A stretch of DNA of 31,567 nt, from UHGV virus genome UHGV-1390503. One strand, given 5' to 3'. How positions within the stretch are numbered: position 1 is the stretch's first letter; each line of letters starts with the position of its first letter. Origin of the DNA: a virus. The notes under the pieces were generated by a model that saw nothing but the letters and a program-made list of their open reading frames with translations, ran no database searches and was not told the DNA's origin. The position numbers and the translations under genes are program-made. Below are positions 1-27,333 of this stretch, piece by piece.

Positions 1-19
1 ATTGTTGCGTTTGGTGAAA

Positions 20-63
20 TAGAACAAAAATGAGAAAAATGATACGCTGCTGTGTAGCAGCGT
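20..63 (-). terminator. Rho-independent terminator at the end of the leftward early operon
   Basis: Hairpin ACGCTGCT-GTGT-AGCAGCGT at 44-63, followed on the minus strand by a T-rich run (revcomp of 21-40 = ATTTTTCTCATTTTTGTTCT), just downstream of the 97..297 stop. Confidence 0.5.
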
Positions 64-96
64 AAGTCACTCAGTAAAATCACAAACTATTGAACA

Positions 97-297
97 TCAC
101 ACTTTCGGAGGCTTAGGTAACGGCATCCAGTGGGTCACGTACTTACCGTAGTGATTCCAGAACGGCTTTCTCTCGTCGCCAGGGACAATGTAATAGTCGT
201 GCTGAACTGCGTTATTCAACGTTTCATACACCAGGAACTCCTTATCTGTACACCCATTACCGGGCAGCATTTCACTACACTTAATCCACTTACTCAT
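97..297 (-). CDS. DUF551-like phage protein (paralog 1)
   Basis: 66 aa ORF with ATG start; N-terminus MSKWIKCSE and C-terminus HWMPLPKPP are characteristic of the DUF551 family as recalled; paralogous to 315..512. Confidence 0.7.
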   Translation of the reverse strand: MSKWIKCSEMLPGNGCTDKEFLVYETLNNAVQHDYYIVPGDERKPFWNHYGKYVTHWMPLPKPPKV

Positions 298-314
298 AAA
301 TCACCTCACATTCA

Positions 315-512
315 TCACACTTCCGGCGGCTCTGGTAACGGCATCCAGTGAGTTATATCTTCCCGGTCTACCGTAACCTCCCACGGCTCTATCCAACTAT
401 CCCAATACCCATCACAGTCTAACCACATAACTTCTACGTAGACCCCATCAGTAACCAGCACATCTTCAAAATCACCCGGCATCCGCTCACTACACTTAAT
501 CCACTTACTCAT
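315..512 (-). CDS. DUF551-like phage protein (paralog 2)
   Basis: 65 aa ORF sharing MSKWIKCSE...HWMPLPEPPEV ends with 97..297; the shared 17-nt string GGTAACGGCATCCAGTG sits at 114-130 and 336-352. Confidence 0.7.
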   Translation of the reverse strand: MSKWIKCSERMPGDFEDVLVTDGVYVEVMWLDCDGYWDSWIEPWEVTVDREDITHWMPLPEPPEV

Positions 513-515
513 ATT

Positions 516-659
516 TCACCCCCTACCCATCACAGTTTGCACACCAGCTTTCCACGCCCGCCACGCGAGACGCGTCTTAACGTTCAGGTACTCTTTCTTT
601 GAACCCTTGTTAACCGGCAGACCCTCGACGACGGCCCACCGTTCAAATGCTTCTCTCAT
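516..659 (-). CDS. Small hypothetical protein (47 aa), below the ORF-track size cut-off
   Basis: ATG at 659-657, stop TGA at 518-516 placed 3 nt before the ATG of 315..512; fills the gap between neighbouring genes. No homology recognised. Confidence 0.35.
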   Translation of the reverse strand: MREAFERWAVVEGLPVNKGSKKEYLNVKTRLAWRAWKAGVQTVMGRG

Positions 660-692
660 ACCAACCCCCGCGCCGCATAAACGGTTAAAATA

Positions 693-899
693 TTACTTAA
701 CACGGCAACCTCCCTCAGAGTCGTCGGCACGAGCATCATGATTCGATGCCGTTCGGAGCGCACGTAAAACTTTTAGCAGGTCTTCACATGTCCCGGAAGA
801 AATAGTCGGGCCGTCTAATAAAACAACCTCGTATCTGTTTACCTGGAAATGCACTTTCTCCAGTCTATGATGTTTCAGTTCTTCAAATAATTCTTCCAT
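693..899 (-). CDS. Hypothetical protein
   Basis: The track ORF 693..902 begins at GTG; the in-frame ATG at 899-897 overlaps the stop of the upstream gene (minus strand GTGATG). Confidence 0.5.
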   Translation of the reverse strand: MEELFEELKHHRLEKVHFQVNRYEVVLLDGPTISSGTCEDLLKVLRALRTASNHDARADDSEGGCRVK

Positions 900-1090
900 C
901 ACTTCGCCCCTTTGAATTTAAAATTGTTGCCGATGAGTTCTAAATTCTCTTCCGCTACGTATACCACCGAATTTACTCCTCTCACCTTTTGCACAGTAAC
1001 TACGTACTCTCCCGGAAATAAAGCGGATTTTAATTCAATCACACCGTGTTTACCGTCGGCACATTTCACCAACTGACCCTTCTTAAACAT
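899..1090 (-). CDS. Hypothetical protein (first gene of the leftward operon)
   Basis: The track ORF starts at GTG 1099; the in-frame ATG at 1090-1088 is preceded by GGAGTGAGGG (Shine-Dalgarno-like) on the minus strand. Confidence 0.5.
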   Translation of the reverse strand: MFKKGQLVKCADGKHGVIELKSALFPGEYVVTVQKVRGVNSVVYVAEENLELIGNNFKFKGAK

Positions 1091-1111
1091 AACCCTCACT
1101 CCTATGTCTCG

Positions 1112-1157
1112 TTTCGATGAGTGAATAGTATCCTATTATGTTGGGGTGTGCAAGAGA
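1112..1157. promoter_or_regulatory. Promoter/operator element copy 1 (palindrome AATAG-N4-CTATT); candidate leftward promoter TTGCAC-N17-TACTAT
   Basis: TGAATAGTATCCTATTAT at 1122-1139; on the minus strand TTGCAC (1153-1148), a 17-nt spacer, TACTAT (1130-1125), about 25 nt upstream of the RBS of 899..1090. Orientation is ambiguous. Confidence 0.5.
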
Positions 1158-1235
1158 TTCATTGAAAATGGTTACGTTGCCGTTGTGATTCTTTAGGGAA
1201 GGTTGCGCCTTTATTCTTATTACTTGGTAACTAAA

Positions 1236-1256
1236 GGGCAGGCTTAAGGCCTGCCC
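1236..1256. other. GC-rich stem-loop in the long non-coding region
   Basis: GGGCAGGC-TTAA-GGCCTGCCC: 8 bp GC-rich stem; on the minus strand it is followed by TTTAGTT. Confidence 0.4.
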
Positions 1257-1410
1257 AATAATCGTTACATTTTTACGGTTGCGAATCTACGGCACATTAA
1301 GAAAATCAGATACTTAAGAGATATGCCGCCGATGATAATAGAGCTTGCCCAGGGCAACCGGAGATACTTAGAAAGGAAAGTTACAATAATTCTCATGTTC
1401 AGTAAGCCTG

Positions 1411-1444
1411 TGTTTAACCCTTTGCTTGACGCACGGGTTAAACA
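1411..1444. repeat. 10-bp inverted repeat TGTTTAACCC / GGGTTAAACA with a 14-nt spacer
   Basis: Read directly; the spacer contains TTGACG. Possible operator or RNA hairpin. Confidence 0.4.
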
Positions 1445-1594
1445 TTCTTACAAGGTGAACAGGAATCAAAGTAACTAAGATATAGAAGCACCTTAAACGA
1501 AGATTTTCATAATGTCAATAGGTGCGATTATGTTTGATTTCCCATTATTCGCAATGTATACTTGATTTCGTTAACTGATAATGAGGGTTTTAGA

Positions 1595-1750
1595 ATGGTT
1601 ACTTTGACAGAAGAACAGTTGGAAAAGTTGCTGATAGAAGCGTGGTTTAACGGACATAACGAGAGCAGATACTACTGCCCTAATAAATATCGCACAGCTA
1701 CGGCGTTCGCGCGGGAAACAATTAAGGAGATTAAAGATGACACAGAATGA
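1595..1750 (+). CDS. Hypothetical small protein (51 aa)
   Basis: The track ORF starts at TTG 1562; the in-frame ATG at 1595 is preceded by GAGGG 8 nt upstream. Confidence 0.5.
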   Translation: MVTLTEEQLEKLLIEAWFNGHNESRYYCPNKYRTATAFARETIKEIKDDTE

Positions 1751-1907
1751 GGTAGCTGAGCGCATCGGGGTTACTCGCCGCACACTGAATAACTGGTTAA
1801 AGAGTGGGAAGTTCCCGGATTGTTGTATTCGCATTATGGGCCGACGTCAGCCAGGTACGTTTGACCCGGAGAAAGTGGAAGCATGGATTAAGGAGAATGT
1901 AAAATGA
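1737..1907 (+). CDS. Small HTH DNA-binding protein (AlpA/excisionase-like), 56 aa
   Basis: Not in the track (<60 aa). ATG 1737, stop TGA 1905-1907 overlapping the next ATG (ATGA). The MTQNEVAERIGVTRRTLNNWLKSGKFP segment is a typical helix-turn-helix. Confidence 0.6.
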   Translation: MTQNEVAERIGVTRRTLNNWLKSGKFPDCCIRIMGRRQPGTFDPEKVEAWIKENVK

Positions 1908-2137
1908 CCGAGTTCCAGTCACGCGTATTTACGGCAGTTGTTTCGTTAACCCGCAAAAAAGGGTCATGCAGCGTTATCGACTTGCGCCGTAGTTATTTTA
2001 GGTACTATAGTTCCGCCATTATTGAAGGGTCGTTGAGGGTACTGGTTAAATCTGGTGTCGTGAAAAACACTGGCGGGAAATATAGCGCCGTTGCAGAAGT
2101 TCGTGGAATGACCGCTACTTTAGAAGACCTGGAATAA
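1904..2137 (+). CDS. Hypothetical protein, possible winged-helix; C-terminus ends LEDLE
   Basis: 77 aa ORF with ATG translationally coupled to the upstream gene. Confidence 0.5.
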   Translation: MTEFQSRVFTAVVSLTRKKGSCSVIDLRRSYFRYYSSAIIEGSLRVLVKSGVVKNTGGKYSAVAEVRGMTATLEDLE

Positions 2138-2196
2138 AAGAAAGCCCCGACGCGGTGAACGCCGAGGCCAAATTACTTGCTGAAGGAATATACAAC

Positions 2197-4437
2197 ATGT
2201 CCGATGTAATTTTATCCTACTCGTGGTCCCGTCGCAACGCGCGGGCAGAGAAAAAGGATATAAACGTCAGAACCACTCACACGGCAACACTGGACGACCT
2301 GAAAGAGCTACTCCAGCCGCTTGATGCTGTCCGTGACGGAATTAACCCGAAGACCGCGTCTGGCTATATCACTGCCGCGTGTGACTCTACGCACAGCACC
2401 GTAAAAGACCCTGAAACAGGTGACTTTAAGCAAGCGCGTAAAGGCTTTTTCTATCGCTGCGACGCGTCTGTAAGCAAATCGTCGCTGGCGTATCTGGACT
2501 TCGACAGCGCAACACCGGAAGAGTACCAGGAAGCGGTGCGCCGGGTTAAGCGCAGCCGCCGGGCCATGTGCCTCTATACCACGGCATCGCATACCGAGGA
2601 GTCACCGCGCTTTCGCGTCGTTATGCCTCTTGGACGCCCGGTTGAAGGCGGCGACATCATCCGCGTTCGCCATGGATTACTTGAGCACTTCTTCAAAGGC
2701 ATGGGTGCTGACCGCAGCGGGTTCACTCTGTCGCAACCGATGTACCTTCCGCCTGTTGGCGCTACCGTTATCTGGTCGCGTCGCAACGACCTGATTGAAC
2801 CGGACGAGTTACTGGAAGACATCCCCGCCGTTGACGTCAGCAGCGCATCGGATTACCAGATACCGGAAGAACTGCGCACCGCGTTTACGGATGCGTTCGA
2901 GGCACTGGCGTTTGAGTACGGCGGTGTCATGACGCCACGTGGCCTTAAGATGCCAGCTACGCCGGAACACGCAGAGAACTACAGCGACCCGACGCCGCGT
3001 TCGGACGACTTCCTGCTGTGCTTCCCGCGTGAAGGGTACGAAGCACCTAACGTAACCATGATTCACGACACCGACATTACGGCAACCGAAGGCATGTCAC
3101 CGAAAGAGGTGTGGAAGTACGCGTGCGATGCGACCGGGCTGCCGTTCAGTGAAGTCGCTGAGGCAATCGGCTGGGGTGCGCGTGAATTCGTTTCATGCAG
3201 CCTTGATGACCTGGAAGACGACGAGGACTCAGAGGAGGACGAGTTACCGGAACCGGTAAAGGCTGATTTTGTCGTCGAAGGGTACATGCCGTCAGATTGT
3301 ATCTGGGATATAGTCGGGGAATCTGGCACGTACAAATCGTTCTATACGCTGGGGATGATGTACCTTAGCGCCGCCGGATACCGGTTTGCAGGCGCGGACA
3401 CCCAGCGTTGCCACCATTTCTATATAGATGGTGAGGGGGGCGCAGCTACGCGCACACGTATTGATGCCCTCGCGGCTAAATATGGCGAGGAAGGTAAAGA
3501 TTATGTGCATGTCATCGACATGGGCGAAGTAGGAAAACTGAAAAGTCTGATTAAGCTAATGCGCGAAACCGCGGGGGATGAGCCTATCGGCATGGTCGCG
3601 TTCGACACCCTCAACCAGACGCTGGCCCTGACTATCGATAAGTTCGACGAGAACAGTTCATCAACGGCAATCGGCATGGGCAAAGTTATCGCCATCCTGA
3701 AAGAAGTGCGCGATGCAACTAAAGCCGCGGTAGGCGTTGTCCACCATACGCCGAAAGGTGGAAAGAAAGCCCGCGGCAGTGGGGCGCTGTATGCAGGTGT
3801 CGACGTGGAACTGACAATCGAACGCGCAACAGACCGTCGGATAAATGTATACCACTCTAAATTTAAGCACGGGCCTCAACAGAAAACTGTTGGCATGGTG
3901 CTGGAGTCGGTACAGTTTCGTGAAGCGCCGCCGCCGAAAGAGTACCGCGCGGTTGAGTTCCTGGGCAGCACAGAGGAATACGGCACAATCGTAGACCTTG
4001 ACCTGCCAGAACCACATAAGGCACTTGTGTTAATGCCGTGGGGTTTCGAGCCGTTTAAGACCGACGAGGAGAAAGAGCGGGAAGAAGGGCTGACAAAGGA
4101 AGGTAAAGAAAACGTAAAGAATACTGTAAAACGTGGAAAGGATGAAGGGCGTAAGGAATCAATACTCGCCGCACTGGAAGACCTGCAACAGTCAGACGAC
4201 ACAGGACGAGGTTTTACACAACGGCAGATAGTGGCGAATTCGGGCGACCACGCCATCACCAACCATCATCTCGAGAAGATGCTGAAAGACGGTGAGTTGA
4301 TGCTCGGATGCGATGTTAACGGTGAAGTTATACCTGGCACATACCGGATACCGGAAAAGATGGGTGACAGATTAAGACCAAAGACAATATACGAACCGAA
4401 TGAAATGCTGACAGTGACAGAGGAGGATTTGGAATGA
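2197..4437 (+). CDS. Replicative primase/helicase-type protein with RecA/DnaB-like P-loop ATPase domain
   Basis: The track ORF starts at GTG 2155; ATG 2197 has GAAGGAA upstream. Walker A-like GESGTYKS, Walker B-like VAFD, HHTPKGG motif and a long N-terminal domain of the size expected for a primase; ends TEEDLE. Confidence 0.8.
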   Translation: MSDVILSYSWSRRNARAEKKDINVRTTHTATLDDLKELLQPLDAVRDGINPKTASGYITAACDSTHSTVKDPETGDFKQARKGFFYRCDASVSKSSLAYLDFDSATPEEYQEAVRRVKRSRRAMCLYTTASHTEESPRFRVVMPLGRPVEGGDIIRVRHGLLEHFFKGMGADRSGFTLSQPMYLPPVGATVIWSRRNDLIEPDELLEDIPAVDVSSASDYQIPEELRTAFTDAFEALAFEYGGVMTPRGLKMPATPEHAENYSDPTPRSDDFLLCFPREGYEAPNVTMIHDTDITATEGMSPKEVWKYACDATGLPFSEVAEAIGWGAREFVSCSLDDLEDDEDSEEDELPEPVKADFVVEGYMPSDCIWDIVGESGTYKSFYTLGMMYLSAAGYRFAGADTQRCHHFYIDGEGGAATRTRIDALAAKYGEEGKDYVHVIDMGEVGKLKSLIKLMRETAGDEPIGMVAFDTLNQTLALTIDKFDENSSSTAIGMGKVIAILKEVRDATKAAVGVVHHTPKGGKKARGSGALYAGVDVELTIERATDRRINVYHSKFKHGPQQKTVGMVLESVQFREAPPPKEYRAVEFLGSTEEYGTIVDLDLPEPHKALVLMPWGFEPFKTDEEKEREEGLTKEGKENVKNTVKRGKDEGRKESILAALEDLQQSDDTGRGFTQRQIVANSGDHAITNHHLEKMLKDGELMLGCDVNGEVIPGTYRIPEKMGDRLRPKTIYEPNEMLTVTEEDLE
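4414..4437 (+). repeat. 24-nt repeat GTGACAGAGGAGGATTTRGAATGA (copy 1)
   Basis: Matches 7839-7862 with one mismatch; encodes a C-terminal VTEEDLE, a GAGGAGGA Shine-Dalgarno and the ATGA stop/start overlap. Confidence 0.8.
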
Positions 4438-4924: not shown

Positions 4925-4954
4925 TTGACAACGTGAATAGTTCACTATTATAGT
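4925..4954 (+). promoter_or_regulatory. Promoter/operator element copy 3 (TTGACA-N18-TATAGT with embedded AATAGT-tc-ACTATT)
   Basis: Consensus -35 TTGACA at 4925-4930, TATAGT at 4949-4954, perfect 6-bp inverted repeat in the spacer; about 30 nt upstream of the RBS of 4986..5495. Confidence 0.6.
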
Positions 4955-6624: not shown

Positions 6625-7862
6625 TTCTAAAAGAACGTGGCGGCAATAACGATGTACACGCCTTACTGTCACCGTCTGGGGCTAAAAAGTGGCTTACGTG
6701 CAGCGCATCACTGGCCTGCGAAAAGGATATTCCTAATACGTCTGGCAAAGCCGCGGTATTAGGTACGGCTATGCACACCATAGCCGAGATGCATCTAAAC
6801 CAATACATCAAAGGCACTGCGTTGCCGTTAGAGCGCGAAGTCGGTGCTTACGTGCTGGATGAAGGCAAAGGCCAGATTAAGGCGCTAATCAGCCCGATGA
6901 AAGGCGCGGTACTGATTACGGCTGACATGATTGAGCAGGTGCGCAAGTACACTGACTACTGCAAACCGATTATCGACGTAGCGACTTACGCCAAGCTGGA
7001 AATGCGCGTCAATCTTACTGAGGTGCTACACCCTGGTTACGAAGGCGTTGAGACCTTCGGAACTGCTGACCTTGTTGCCGTTCAGGAACTGGCTAACACC
7101 GACGAGCACATGCTTATCATCGGCGACCTTAAAACTGGACGGCATCGTGTCGAAGCGAAGGAAAACAAGCAGCTTATGCTCTACGCTCTCGGTGTTTATC
7201 GTCGACTCAAGAGACGTTATAACATCACAGTTGTTCGTCTGGTCATCTTCCAGCCGTATGCCGGTGGTGCGTCGGAGTGGGACATCTCGGTTGAAGGTCT
7301 GGAACTGTTCGCCAAGTTCGCACAGAAACGCGCACTGTTAGCGCTTGATGCGTATTTCCGAGGCAAGAAGAACCTGAAAGCGTCGGACTTCAGGCCGTCA
7401 GTCGATGGTTGCCAGTGGTGTCGTTTCTCGGAGCAGTGTGCAGCGCGTACAAAAACCATTAACGCGGTACTGGCGGAAGAACTGGAGGACGATTTTGCAC
7501 TGGAACTGACGCCGGAGCAACTCGTAACTGAGTATGAGAAGTTGCCGTTGTTGTGTCAGCACATCGACAAGGTTGAGAAAGCTATGGCTGCCGCGTTGCA
7601 TTCCGGTAAGAAAGTTCCGGGGTACAAACTGGTTGAAGGCCGTCCCGGTAATCGCGCGTGGAAAGACGCGGATAAAGTAGCAGAACTCTACGGCGACAAG
7701 CTGACTAAAGAAGTGCTCATGTCACCTACCGAAGCTGTTAAAGTAATACCGGAAGAAGAACTGAAAGACTTCATTACCCGTAAGCCGGGTACACCATGTG
7801 TCGCAACGTCAGACGACAAACGTCCTGAGTGGAATCAGGTGACAGAGGAGGATTTAGAATGA
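6621..7862 (+). CDS. PD-(D/E)XK family nuclease with C-terminal Cys cluster (DUF2800/Cas4-like)
   Basis: 413 aa; D...IGDLKTG...QLMLYALG core and C-terminal CQWCRFSEQC; ends TEEDLE. Confidence 0.8.
   Translation: MILKERGGNNDVHALLSPSGAKKWLTCSASLACEKDIPNTSGKAAVLGTAMHTIAEMHLNQYIKGTALPLEREVGAYVLDEGKGQIKALISPMKGAVLITADMIEQVRKYTDYCKPIIDVATYAKLEMRVNLTEVLHPGYEGVETFGTADLVAVQELANTDEHMLIIGDLKTGRHRVEAKENKQLMLYALGVYRRLKRRYNITVVRLVIFQPYAGGASEWDISVEGLELFAKFAQKRALLALDAYFRGKKNLKASDFRPSVDGCQWCRFSEQCAARTKTINAVLAEELEDDFALELTPEQLVTEYEKLPLLCQHIDKVEKAMAAALHSGKKVPGYKLVEGRPGNRAWKDADKVAELYGDKLTKEVLMSPTEAVKVIPEEELKDFITRKPGTPCVATSDDKRPEWNQVTEEDLE
7839..7862 (+). repeat. 24-nt repeat GTGACAGAGGAGGATTTRGAATGA (copy 2)
   Basis: See copy 1 at 4414-4437. 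Confidence 0.8.
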
Positions 7863-8036: not shown

Positions 8037-8065
8037 TTGACACCTGAATAGTTGGCTATTATAGT
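8037..8065 (+). promoter_or_regulatory. Promoter/operator element copy 4 (TTGACA-N17-TATAGT with AATAG-ttgg-CTATT)
   Basis: Consensus -35 and -10 with 17-nt spacing, about 55 nt upstream of the SSB-like gene. Confidence 0.65.
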
Positions 8066-11801: not shown

Positions 11802-12112
11802 CTAAAGAGGGCCGTGTACAGAAATACACAAAAGAGCGATTCGAGGCCCTGGGGGGCCTCGTTCGTAAACTTTCCTACGAAGGACGTTCTGGTGCTCCTG
11901 ACCTGCTGGTAATTCTCCCTGGCGGCATCATCTGGTTTGTCGAGGTTAAGAAAGACGAGAACACGAAGCCAGACCCCCACCAGTTACGAGAGCATGCGCG
12001 TATGCGTAAACGTGGTGCAAATGTTTTTGTCGTCGGGTCGATAAAACAGGTTGACACCCTAATAGCAGACTATTATAGTAAGCACATACCCCAACAATAT
12101 AAGGAATTATAA
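11798..12112 (+). CDS. VRR-NUC domain nuclease
   Basis: 104 aa; PDLLVIL...GIIWFVEVKKDENTKP...HQLREHARMRKRGANVFVV matches the VRR-NUC core as recalled. Confidence 0.75.
   Translation: MTKEGRVQKYTKERFEALGGLVRKLSYEGRSGAPDLLVILPGGIIWFVEVKKDENTKPDPHQLREHARMRKRGANVFVVGSIKQVDTLIADYYSKHIPQQYKEL
12051..12079 (+). promoter_or_regulatory. Promoter/operator element copy 6 (TTGACA-N17-TATAGT with AATAG-caga-CTATT), inside the 3' end of the VRR-NUC gene
   Basis: Read directly; about 35 nt upstream of the ATG at 12114. Confidence 0.55.
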
Positions 12113-15068: not shown

Positions 15069-15202
15069 ACATCACAGCCCCGATTCCAGCATTGCAAAAA
15101 CGTATCAAGGAACTAGAAGAGGAGGTTCTACGACTACGGCAGCAAAGAGACGCCGCTAATGCGCAACTGGCGTTTGTACTGGAGAAGTTATCGGAAGAGT
15201 AG
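15065..15202 (+). CDS. Small coiled-coil protein (45 aa), below the track cut-off
   Basis: MNITAPIPALQKRIKELEEEVLRLRQQRDAANAQLAFVLEKLSEE; ATGA-coupled; followed by a terminator. Confidence 0.35.
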   Translation: MNITAPIPALQKRIKELEEEVLRLRQQRDAANAQLAFVLEKLSEE

Positions 15203-15236
15203 AGAAAAGGCCCCTTTTGGGGCCTTAGTTTTCTTT
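15203..15236. terminator. Bidirectional rho-independent terminator between the replication and tail modules
   Basis: AAGGCCCC-TTTT-GGGGCCTT with T-runs on both strands; near-identical to the hairpin at 26143-26162. Confidence 0.7.
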
Positions 15237-24330: not shown

Positions 24331-24365
24331 CTTGCGCACCCCAATATAATAGGGTACTATTCGCC
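24331..24365. promoter_or_regulatory. Promoter/operator element copy 5, inverted relative to copy 1
   Basis: Revcomp GAATAGTACCCTATTATATTGGGGTGCGCAAG matches copy 1 at 31 of 34 positions; read rightward TTGCGC-N17-TACTAT (24332-24360) would drive the island; read leftward it would drive the tail genes. Confidence 0.55.
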
Positions 24366-25911: not shown

Positions 25912-26138
25912 CTTCAAAATACAACCGCACAATGACAAATACTCACGGCAGCACAATGACAGTAGACGTTTATGATGTGCTACGCGCCTTCGACATCCGC
26001 GACCCTGCACTACAGCACGCATTGAAGAAGCTGCTGTGTATGGGTCTTCGTGGGCACAAGGACACCGGAACCGACTTAGCGGAAGCAATTGAAAGTCTGG
26101 AGAAGTTACGGGAGTATAGAAGCAATATTGATGAGTGA
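25908..26138 (+). CDS. Small phage protein (possibly DUF3310-like, from weak memory)
   Basis: 76 aa; ATGA-coupled; the LQHALKKLLCMGLRGHKDTGTDLAEAIESL segment. Confidence 0.45.
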   Translation: MTSKYNRTMTNTHGSTMTVDVYDVLRAFDIRDPALQHALKKLLCMGLRGHKDTGTDLAEAIESLEKLREYRSNIDE

Positions 26139-26142
26139 GAAA

Positions 26143-26166
26143 AAGGCCCCTTCCGGGGCCTTAGTT
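26143..26166. terminator. Bidirectional rho-independent terminator
   Basis: AAGGCCCC-TTCC-GGGGCCTT with TTTTT on the minus strand; near-identical to the terminator at 15207-15226. Confidence 0.7.
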
Positions 26167-27333
26167 TTATGCGTAGGTGATACGCTGGATAACGATAGAC
26201 GACTGGTACTGGTTGCCTGTAGCCTGTCCTTCTATGCTCTGAGTGATTGACTCAGGTCCGCCAATCTCAGGTGTAACCGCCGTGAGTTCCGCACGTTTCA
26301 GGCTGAAAGACATAGCCCCGTTTACCCCCGCCAGAATAGAGTTAATCTCTACCTGCTGTTCGTTGATAAACTTCTGAATCATAGCCATGTCGTACAGCTT
26401 ACCGGAGATGGAGAAGGTGTTAGCTGCGCGGCCTCGCTCCACGAACGCGACGCTACTGTTGCCTAGCTCGAACTGTGCGGACGCACCGTTGTCGTTGGTG
26501 ATAGTTAGAGTATCGCAACGCAACGGCGTAGAACCGTCGAACACAGACACATCTACAGACGAGAACGGCTCATCGGTGAACGTCACCTGGGAGAAATCAG
26601 AGCCAGACGGCGGGGTGGTAAGAATCTCCTGACTCAGACCAATGAACGGGAAGCTACCAGTCACCATCGCGTTTACAGCCTGTTCAATGGTGAAACCGGA
26701 GATTTCCACGCCTTTGGTCAACATGTACGCGTCCGGGTTCCCGCACTGGCCTTTGAACCATGTCAGAATGGAGAACGTCTTACACGCGTTACCGGTTTCC
26801 AGCTTGTCGCCAGTTTTAGCGTCGGTGGTTACAGTCTCTGCGGTCAGCGTGTGCTGAATGCCCGCGCCCGTTACTACCAGAGCGGAAGCCGCGGTAACGA
26901 TAAACGGTTTTGCGTTGTCGCCGGTTAAGTCGGTGAACGCAATCAGGTCGCCAACTTCTACACCGTCAGTAATGAAGCTACCGGCAGCGCGGGTGAATGT
27001 TTTACCTGCTGGGGCGACCGTAATTTCGGCACCCGTAATCTCTACCCCTGCTTGCCACGTAGAAGTCATCGCGCCAGCAAGGAAATCATCCTGACTACGG
27101 GAGCTAAGTTCGATGGCGTACTCCCCGCTAACCTGTTTGTTACCGGTGCGGATAGACGTAGTTTCACGGCTGCCGTCAAGTTCGTTGGAAGTAAGCGCAT
27201 CGCGGGTTACCGCTGGAACACCGCCGGTATTACGCAACGGCGACCAGACCGGGTTAGTAGGTGTTACGCCCGGGGTAGTTTCCGCCACATAGAATTGCGC
27301 GGTATTCGCGCCCTTAAAAGGAGTTGTAGCCAT
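26167..27333 (-). CDS. Major tail (tube) protein
   Basis: The track ORF starts at GTG 27339; ATG 27333 has AAGAGG upstream. About 388 aa, Thr/Gly/Ser-rich and beta-rich, placed after the tail-completion genes and ending at a strong terminator. Confidence 0.55.
   Translation of the reverse strand: MATTPFKGANTAQFYVAETTPGVTPTNPVWSPLRNTGGVPAVTRDALTSNELDGSRETTSIRTGNKQVSGEYAIELSSRSQDDFLAGAMTSTWQAGVEITGAEITVAPAGKTFTRAAGSFITDGVEVGDLIAFTDLTGDNAKPFIVTAASALVVTGAGIQHTLTAETVTTDAKTGDKLETGNACKTFSILTWFKGQCGNPDAYMLTKGVEISGFTIEQAVNAMVTGSFPFIGLSQEILTTPPSGSDFSQVTFTDEPFSSVDVSVFDGSTPLRCDTLTITNDNGASAQFELGNSSVAFVERGRAANTFSISGKLYDMAMIQKFINEQQVEINSILAGVNGAMSFSLKRAELTAVTPEIGGPESITQSIEGQATGNQYQSSIVIQRITYA

Follow-up and report, generated by a model that had tools for sequence, protein, structure and literature searches.

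The DNA analysed here is the virus genome UHGV-1390503, whose full stretch of 31,567 nucleotides (nt) we call the window. It derives from a Kagunavirus (Guernseyvirinae), a virulent siphophage of Escherichia coli, and its closest DNA matches are phages ZCEC5, SZH-1, K1ind1 and BASEL phage Bas73. Between two divergent early operons lies a gap of about 0.5 kb (1091-1594), bounded by the ATG of a leftward gene (1090..1088, minus strand) and that of a rightward gene (1595); a probable structured RNA element in this gap is the subject of the present analysis. The leftward ATG is the first in a cluster of small genes, and the rightward operon contains the following genes:

1595-1750, plus strand: gene for a 51-amino-acid (aa) protein (phrog_20928)
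1737-1907, plus strand: gene for a HTH_17/MerR-like 56-aa protein
1904-2137, plus strand: gene for a 77-aa winged-helix protein
2197-4437, plus strand: gene for an AAA_25 primase-helicase

The phrog_20928 gene is an extra one, inserted between the rightward promoter and the helix-turn-helix (HTH) gene. It occurs in few relatives only (ZCEC5/L001, L019 and L054 among the loci compared), and elsewhere the promoter mostly leads directly into the HTH gene.

A non-coding gap conserved in two phage genera

A sequence-only reading of this DNA had described the gap as an unusually long non-coding region between divergent early operons, and comparison with relatives confirms it: no open reading frame (ORF) in the gap is conserved in frame or position. 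The 51-codon ORF at 1323..1478, which that reading had found unconvincing as a gene, does exist, with a counterpart of about its length (51-55 codons) in only 8 of 33 distinct homologs; in 22 of the 33 the counterpart either lacks a start codon or spans just 6-21 codons. Across the core, neither strand of the Jerseyvirus copies examined contains an ORF of at least 30 codons, and indels between relatives are of 1, 7 and 10 nt, which are not multiples of three. The gap is truly non-coding. Individual genomes do contain ORFs of 30-116 codons here, some of them annotated, such as the 106-aa Bas73_0055 in GenBank, but this one too is unconserved, and substitutions in the region preserve base pairing rather than being synonymous, so that a missed small protein is hardly credible.

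Annotation of this region varies among records. In RefSeq, about 1 kb of Salmonella phage vB_SenS-Ent3 (NC_024204.1, L066; locus 100-1098) is unannotated; within it lie the RNA element and, on the minus strand at locus 319-507, a 62-aa homolog of the first leftward gene that is likewise missing from the annotation. The vB_SenS-Ent3 homolog of the 77-aa gene is labelled ‘putative uvsX-like protein’, a label which the winged-helix model does not support.

The region is kept across two phage genera. Searches with blastn matched part or whole of it in 449 phage records, mostly Escherichia Kagunavirus and Salmonella Jerseyvirus, and 208 of these cover at least 80% of the query. Identity to a Jerseyvirus is 76.7% in the gap, versus 67.8% in the adjacent genes (1737-4332); the Jerseyvirus primase has 56% protein identity. 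Pattern scans of viral, metagenome and genome collections found the element solely on 41-45 kb Guernseyvirinae-like contigs, and BLAST did not find it in 5,426 E. coli genomes or in plasmids. The sole match in a bacterial assembly is a Jerseyvirus-like sequence: a scaffold carrying the element in an assembly of Taishania pollutisoli, a member of the Bacteroidota (NZ_JACVEL010000022.1, L061), most likely present there through assembly contamination. The element is thus common to many E. coli and Salmonella phages of the Guernseyvirinae.

RNA structure and base-pair covariation

Treated as RNA, 1228-1485 is more stable than expected by chance on both strands (z = -6.7 for the minus strand and z = -4.3 for the plus strand), and 0/200 shuffles were as stable on either strand. 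The minimum-free-energy fold of the minus strand is also its centroid. The features of this fold are:

1379..1476, minus strand: stem-loop SL-A, 98 nt (minimum-free-energy fold, covariance model)
1476..1471 with 1384..1379, minus strand: SL-A helix P1
1468..1463 with 1392..1387, minus strand: SL-A helix P2
1461..1456 with 1401..1396, minus strand: SL-A helix P3
1451..1447 with 1406..1402, minus strand: SL-A helix P4
hypervariable apical hairpin P5 of SL-A, minus strand, containing the inverted repeat 1411-1444
1358..1378, minus strand: unpaired conserved stretch just 3' of SL-A (kept in 32/32 homologs)
1345..1357, minus strand: small hairpin H2, UUGCC-CUG-GGCAA (94% of cells paired)
1269..1344, minus strand: central part, highly conserved in sequence (alignments)
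1227..1268, minus strand: 3' end module with the GC hairpin H1 at 1256..1236 (terminator scan, compensatory variants)
1268..1264 with 1231..1227, minus strand: possible outer helix GUAAC/GUUAC flanking H1

The sequence-only reading had pointed out two hairpins as separate features, and both are real. The 10-bp inverted repeat at 1411-1444 consists of TGTTTAACCC (1411-1420) pairing with GGGTTAAACA (1435-1444) over a 14-nt spacer, and the 8-bp GC hairpin at 1236-1256 of GGGCAGGC/GCCTGCCC at 1236-1243 and 1249-1256. What was missed is that the repeat forms only the tip of the 98-nt SL-A. Among relatives, the sequences at 1411-1444 are wholly different, yet the hairpin still forms, and folding recovered the SL-A architecture, which includes a conserved 4-nt bulge (CCUU) between P3 and P4, in every distinct homolog.

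Comparative analysis bears out the earlier description of the region as structured. RNAalifold run on a plain MAFFT alignment did not recover the variable helices because of misalignment, and covariance models were built instead. Model R1, which represents 1338-1484 of the minus strand with 41 pairs, matched 33 loci (E = 1e-37 to 1e-8) and none of the loci of K1H-type Kagunaviruses (discussed below). When 32 distinct homologs are aligned by fitting to the model, standard pairs occupy 97.0% of pair cells, and double-sided changes which keep the pairing are found in 23 of the 41 pairs. The covariation score is 0.419, versus 0.162 in shuffles (0/500 as high), and falls to 0.03-0.09, with 25-44% of cells paired, in controls where the partners were slid. 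A conserved structured RNA is strongly supported.

The sequence 3' of SL-A varies less. The unpaired stretch at 1358..1378 contains the pyrimidine-rich CUUUCCUUYCU and a UAAGUAUCU repeat (plus strand AGATACTTA, 1362-1370), and is a candidate seed or protein-binding site. The other UAAGUAUCU repeat (plus strand AGATACTTA, 1308-1316) is in the central part, at a spacing of 54 nt in the window and 53 nt in Jerseyvirus, together with an invariant CAUCGGC and two putative short helices (CGGCR/UGCCG and UUAAG/CUURA); variation there is low and therefore leaves little covariation to judge. The unpaired CUUUCCUUYCU, the two repeats and the conserved lower stem with its bulge are, we infer, the likely functional surfaces. 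A long-range inverted repeat (1294-1307 with 1502-1515) has no matching repeat in the Jerseyvirus alignment rows and was therefore treated as chance.

In the 8-bp stem of H1, 7 pairs are G-C, and TTTAGTTA comes after it; the 3' flank of H1 on the minus strand reads UUUAGUUA (1235..1228). Relatives carry compensatory variants of H1 (GGGCAGGC/GCCTGCCC, GGGCAGGT/ACCTGCCC and GGGTGGGC/GCCCACCC), and in other clades its place is taken by another hairpin built to the same plan.

The element matches no described RNA family. Searches of 1-4000 with Rfam 15 (4227 models, including phage C4/CI-type antisense RNAs, 6S and known leaders) returned no match at E <= 1. The best scores over 1090-1600 were far from threshold (PrrF, 21.5 bits with a threshold of 90; AS-pc01, 20.3 with 79; STnc150, 17.1 with 60) and are due to the terminator-like hairpin. 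We found no account of the element in the literature on Kagunavirus, Guernseyvirinae, Jerseyvirus or MB78.

Strand, promoters and ends of the proposed RNA

Two aspects of the locus had gone unnoticed in the sequence-only reading, namely the strand of the RNA and the back-to-back promoters. With regard to strand, one alignment contains 57 G·U cells at 7 positions when read as the minus strand, most of them fixed in whole clades, versus 11 wobble cells when read as the plus strand, nine of them at a helix end. P4 goes from A-U in Kagunavirus to G·U in most Jerseyvirus and to G-C in two Jerseyvirus sequences, and the Jerseyvirus P5 stem is CUUAGCG/CGUUAAG, with minus-strand wobbles. In H2, the variant UUGCC/GGCGA replaces U-A by U·G on the minus strand in 12 sequences; read from the plus strand, the same change would give C·A. 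The 3' half has three further G·U wobbles on the minus strand, and the A·C cells there are singletons. Mirrored models, each with its own alignment, pair 97.0% of cells on the minus strand versus 93.3% on the plus strand. A comparison by model bit score is equivocal, as all 13 Jerseyvirus sequences favour minus (by 1.4-5.5 bits) but most divergent Kagunavirus sequences favour plus. The minus strand is favoured overall, rather than proven.

A structured RNA read from the plus strand would be either a long 5' leader of the HTH/replication operon or a small RNA that runs rightward and stops at the apical hairpin. The stem-loops fold on both strands, several Kagunaviruses have a T run after the apical hairpin on the plus strand, and a weak forward promoter match (TCGATG-17-TATGTT) is present at 1111-1139; the plus model also scores slightly better in 9 of 11 divergent Kagunavirus sequences (by 0.7-4.3 bits). 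However, the clade-fixed G·U pairs would become A·C mismatches within helices, the plus-strand minimum-free-energy fold is unconserved in Jerseyvirus, no conserved plus-strand promoter lies upstream, and for the rightward operon an invariant promoter is already in place at 1534-1562, on the downstream side of the structure. We regard a plus-strand RNA as highly unlikely.

The promoters and operator copies which bear on the minus-strand RNA and its neighbours are:

-35 1518..1513 and -10 1495..1490, minus strand: proposed promoter of the RNA, TTGACA-17-TAAGGT (conserved hexamers and spacing)
1534..1562, plus strand: rightward early promoter P_R, TTGATT-17-TATACT (promoter scan)
-35 1153..1148 and -10 1130..1125, minus strand: putative leftward operon promoter P_L, TTGCAC-17-TACTAT (sequence)
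1124-1139, 4936-4951, 8047-8062 and 12061-12076, plus strand: copies of AATAG-N4-CTATTAT
24346-24361, minus strand: copy of AATAG-N4-CTATTAT

In the proposed RNA promoter, TTGACA is present in 32/32 sequences with the anchor motif (one further sequence lacks the anchor). The -10 is TAAGGT in Kagunavirus and TAAGTT in Jerseyvirus (TAAGKT), at a spacing of 17 nt (18 in one sequence). The spacer sequence diverges between the genera while hexamers and spacing hold, as one would expect if this sigma-70 promoter works. Its position places the predicted start near 1483, about 8 nt before SL-A. A promoter-scan match on the minus strand, TTGCGA/CATAAT, was dropped as unconserved in Jerseyvirus.

The RNA promoter stands back to back with P_R, whose hexamers are invariant in 33/33 homologs while its spacer varies, and which is followed by a ribosome-binding site (GAGGG, 1583-1587) and the ATG at 1595. 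Two TTGATTTC copies had been reported in an AT-rich stretch here; they are present, one base to the right of where they had been placed, at 1534-1541 and 1562-1569. The first is the invariant -35 of P_R, and the second is unconserved. For K1B4, a related Kagunavirus, the HTH gene downstream of P_R is reported as early (PMC12645636).

At the left edge of the gap, where the sequence-only reading had recognised the first copy of a promoter/operator motif, AATAGTATCCTATTAT occupies 1124-1139. P_L overlaps the palindrome AATAG-N4-CTATT (1124-1137), with a predicted start near 1118 and the first gene's ATG at 1090, and the P_L block is conserved in all relatives, including K1H-type phages and Jerseyvirus. 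The extended motif AATAG-N4-CTATTAT has 5 copies in the window, versus 0.02 expected by chance. At the 24346 copy, a gene begins about 35 nt further on in the equivalent direction, and this geometry fixes the direction of the P_L-type promoter. The motif is found in two promoter geometries, TTGACA-N2-TGAATAG...TATAGT and the oppositely reading P_L type, each time within promoter-like sequence, and probably constitutes the operator set of one phage regulator. Earlier work on phage fBC-Eco01 had noted it as a recurring ‘phage promoter’ motif (PMC9825357).

At the other end of the proposed RNA, the terminator scan picks out H1, and does so only for the minus strand; H1 is located just upstream of P_L on the leftward path.

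The clade-fixed G·U wobbles, the invariant TTGACA-17-TAAGKT promoter and the terminator-like hairpin with its T run lead us to propose, with moderate confidence, that the element is a separate gene, read leftward from ~1483 to 1229, whose product is a non-coding RNA of about 255 nt with a high degree of structure. The sequence comparisons show that the gap is non-coding and conserved, that its base pairs covary and that promoter and hairpin are kept; transcription, strand, transcript ends and regulatory role are inferences from them. The sequence-only reading had offered a small RNA locus, a regulatory leader or a replication origin; the first of these fits best, the second is possible and the third is without positive support. 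Host sigma-70 RNA polymerase would start near 1483, and the 5' part of the nascent RNA would fold into the irregular SL-A, with its lower helices and 4-nt bulge conserved and its tip hypervariable. The pyrimidine-rich stretch and the two UAAGUAUCU repeats would then be exposed around H2, and the RNA would end near 1229 at the GC hairpin 1256..1236 and its short U tract, just upstream of P_L. It would probably be an early regulatory RNA, whose unpaired segments act on messenger RNAs (mRNAs) or whose lower stem and bulge act on a protein, and would belong functionally with the co-inherited HTH and winged-helix genes.

The same minus-strand RNA could instead work in cis, as the 5' leader of a leftward early message that starts from the promoter at 1518..1490 and reads through H1, and in which SL-A governs attenuation, put-like processive antitermination, RNase III processing or message stability. 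Three observations are in keeping with a leader: the U tract of H1 is weak, with H1-equivalents in two clades having none; the leftward TTGACA promoter is retained in K1H-type phages despite replacement of the sequence downstream of it; and SL-A, close behind the predicted start and upstream of a terminator-like hairpin, has a layout resembling that of HK022 put. HK022 put is a cis-acting antiterminator RNA made of two hairpins of about 35 nt each. Like put, the element would be a structured RNA right after an early promoter, ahead of a terminator-like hairpin and an early operon. Unlike put, it has a single 98-nt multi-helix hairpin and a long conserved tail, and two adjacent short stem-loops after the promoter, the arrangement that defines the put type, were not found. 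Moreover, the operon downstream possesses a conserved promoter of its own, whose operator is 35 nt from the first gene, H1 scored as terminator-like, and read-through of H1 is a supposition. A leader therefore seems to us possible but unlikely.

Several points weigh against a separate minus-strand gene. The pair counts come from alignments fitted to models, which is a bias toward structure, although the main substitutions adjoin invariant columns and are therefore independent of alignment. The divergent Kagunavirus sequences that prefer the plus model run counter to the choice of strand, and a folded single DNA strand would account equally well for the G·U/A·C asymmetry. The RNA promoter has a weak -10 (3/6 matches) and for that reason went unlisted in the promoter scan. 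Termination may be partial, since H1 is followed by a short, interrupted U tract and, in two clades, no U tract directly follows the H1-equivalent hairpin. Trans targets were not found: the window has 17 exact 10-mer matches to the locus, versus about 15 by chance according to our rough estimate. Finally, the RNA-seq study of Kagunavirus K1B4 covers annotated genes only (PMC12645636).

An exchangeable module and its likeness to known systems

In K1H-type Kagunaviruses, roughly 1195-2125 is replaced by other sequence while the P_L block is retained. The N-terminal region of their primase-helicase nevertheless has 90-96% protein identity, and the DNA from 2126 onward is about 92% identical. The replacement sequence folds weakly (z ~ -2.4). 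TTGACA-16-TAAAAT is kept at the position of the RNA promoter, and this strong leftward promoter, one AGATACT motif and a CCCUCCUUC stretch are seen in the K1H-type module (L007 3100-3500), which is otherwise unrelated. It also holds a GC hairpin, CGCCCCGC/GCGGGGC(G), and may encode a different RNA; its comparison with Rfam gave sub-threshold chance matches only.

Across loci, the presence of SL-A tracks the HTH allele perfectly. HTH protein identity is 98-100% in Kagunavirus carriers and 86-89% in Jerseyvirus, compared with 71-86% in Kagunaviruses without SL-A. SL-A also tracks the allele of the 77-aa gene, of which the K1H-type version is a divergent member of the same PHROG (phrog_5169). It does not track the primase-helicase, which is 90-96% identical with or without the element. 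This pattern identifies an exchangeable regulatory module independent of the replication enzyme. The 77-aa protein is predicted with confidence to be a winged helix, and its structural matches are generic and so provide no functional clue.

These observations also bear on whether the element acts as DNA, either as an origin of replication (possibly primed by a leftward transcript, as in ColE1 or T4 oriF) or as another folded single-stranded DNA signal, recognised by the co-inherited HTH or winged-helix proteins. It does lie directly upstream of the replication module (HTH, winged-helix protein and primase-helicase), its core co-segregates with alleles of two DNA-binding-type proteins, AGATACTTA-like repeats occur at spacings of 53-54 bp and 105 bp, and wobble asymmetry is also expected of folded single-stranded DNA. 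GC skew changes sign near 1000-1100, which coincides with the switch in gene orientation and thus carries no independent information. On the other hand, the region contains no DnaA box within one mismatch, no GATC and no iteron array; its AT content is moderate (54-70% per 50 nt) and its repeats amount to two of 9 nt. The octamer TGTTCACC, which we take to be the P4 iteron, has one occurrence in the region (1454-1461) and two in the window as a whole, no more than chance would give, and the primase-helicase is of AAA_25 type; a P4-like origin was rejected. Nested helices over some 100 nt with a hypervariable tip are atypical of double-stranded origins. With ColE1 RNA II/RNA I and T4 oriF the element would share a transcript made by host polymerase, with 5' stem-loops, beside replication functions, and its variable tip recalls their specificity loops, but an antisense promoter, a downstream origin and an RNase H-type site were not found here. 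It is dispensable in close relatives with the same replication enzymes: K1H-type phages with 96% identical primase-helicase N-terminal regions have unrelated, weakly structured sequence at this place. The proposal of an origin, made in the sequence-only reading, gains no positive support from this, and we consider a DNA-level element improbable.

As a minus-strand regulatory RNA, the element comes closest to two known groups, neither homologous to it. The first consists of small RNAs of phage immunity regions such as lambda OOP, P22 sar, P1/P7 c4 and P4 CI RNA, which are RNAs of about 70-80 nt from temperate phages, antisense to a target in the same region. Like these, it is phage-encoded, would be transcribed by host polymerase, and lies in an early regulatory region beside DNA-binding regulators and in an exchangeable module. 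It differs from them in its length (about 255 nt), in belonging to virulent phages and in that no overlapping gene or target was found. Among virulent phages, transcript mapping has revealed abundant structured short transcripts as non-coding RNA candidates in phiKZ, PAK_P3 and others (PMC10914365). These resemble the element in being structured, in lying in intergenic regions or 5' untranslated regions, and in being bounded by a promoter and a conditional terminator, of which the element has putative ones. They were found by expression and mostly without comparative structure, whereas the element was found by covariation, and the sequences and phages are unrelated.

Several repeats elsewhere in the window were seen in passing. 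The C-terminus of the 77-aa winged-helix protein is TATLEDLE (2114-2137), and that of its K1H-type allele is ISHDLE. A near-identical 24-nt stretch at 4414-4437 and 7839-7862 encodes the C-terminal tail VTEEDLE-stop, common to the primase-helicase and a second protein. The acidic ...DLE tail in common suggests that these proteins may have the same docking partner. Tandem DUF551 paralogues of 66 and 65 aa (Pfam) are encoded at 97-297 and 315-512 on the minus strand, with DNA blocks repeated at the gene ends (repeat families D2 and D5). Two near-identical strong terminator-like hairpins, AAAAGGCCCC-TTTT/TTCC-GGGGCCTTAGTTTT (family D1), are at 15194-15232 and 26130-26168.

A broader idea, which we put forward as speculative and rather doubtful, is that virulent Guernseyvirinae possess an exchangeable module for early control, akin to an immunity region, with the RNA core as its nucleic-acid part. 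Together with the co-inherited HTH and winged-helix proteins, or by acting directly on RNA polymerase, the RNA would set the timing of the divergent early operons or insulate them, and the hypervariable hairpin tip would set allele specificity. If this is right, lytic phages would have an RNA switch, or a ribonucleoprotein, of a new class.

Phages of the genera Kagunavirus and Jerseyvirus are isolated in many places and find use in therapy or biocontrol, yet hardly any work has addressed their early regulation. GenBank records have spurious ORFs at this locus in some cases and 0.5-1 kb left blank in others, and many would need correction; the element would justify a new RNA family. A long RNA supported by covariation between two early operons is a testable handle on early gene control in these phages, for which the close relatives that swap the element together with two DNA-binding genes provide natural controls.

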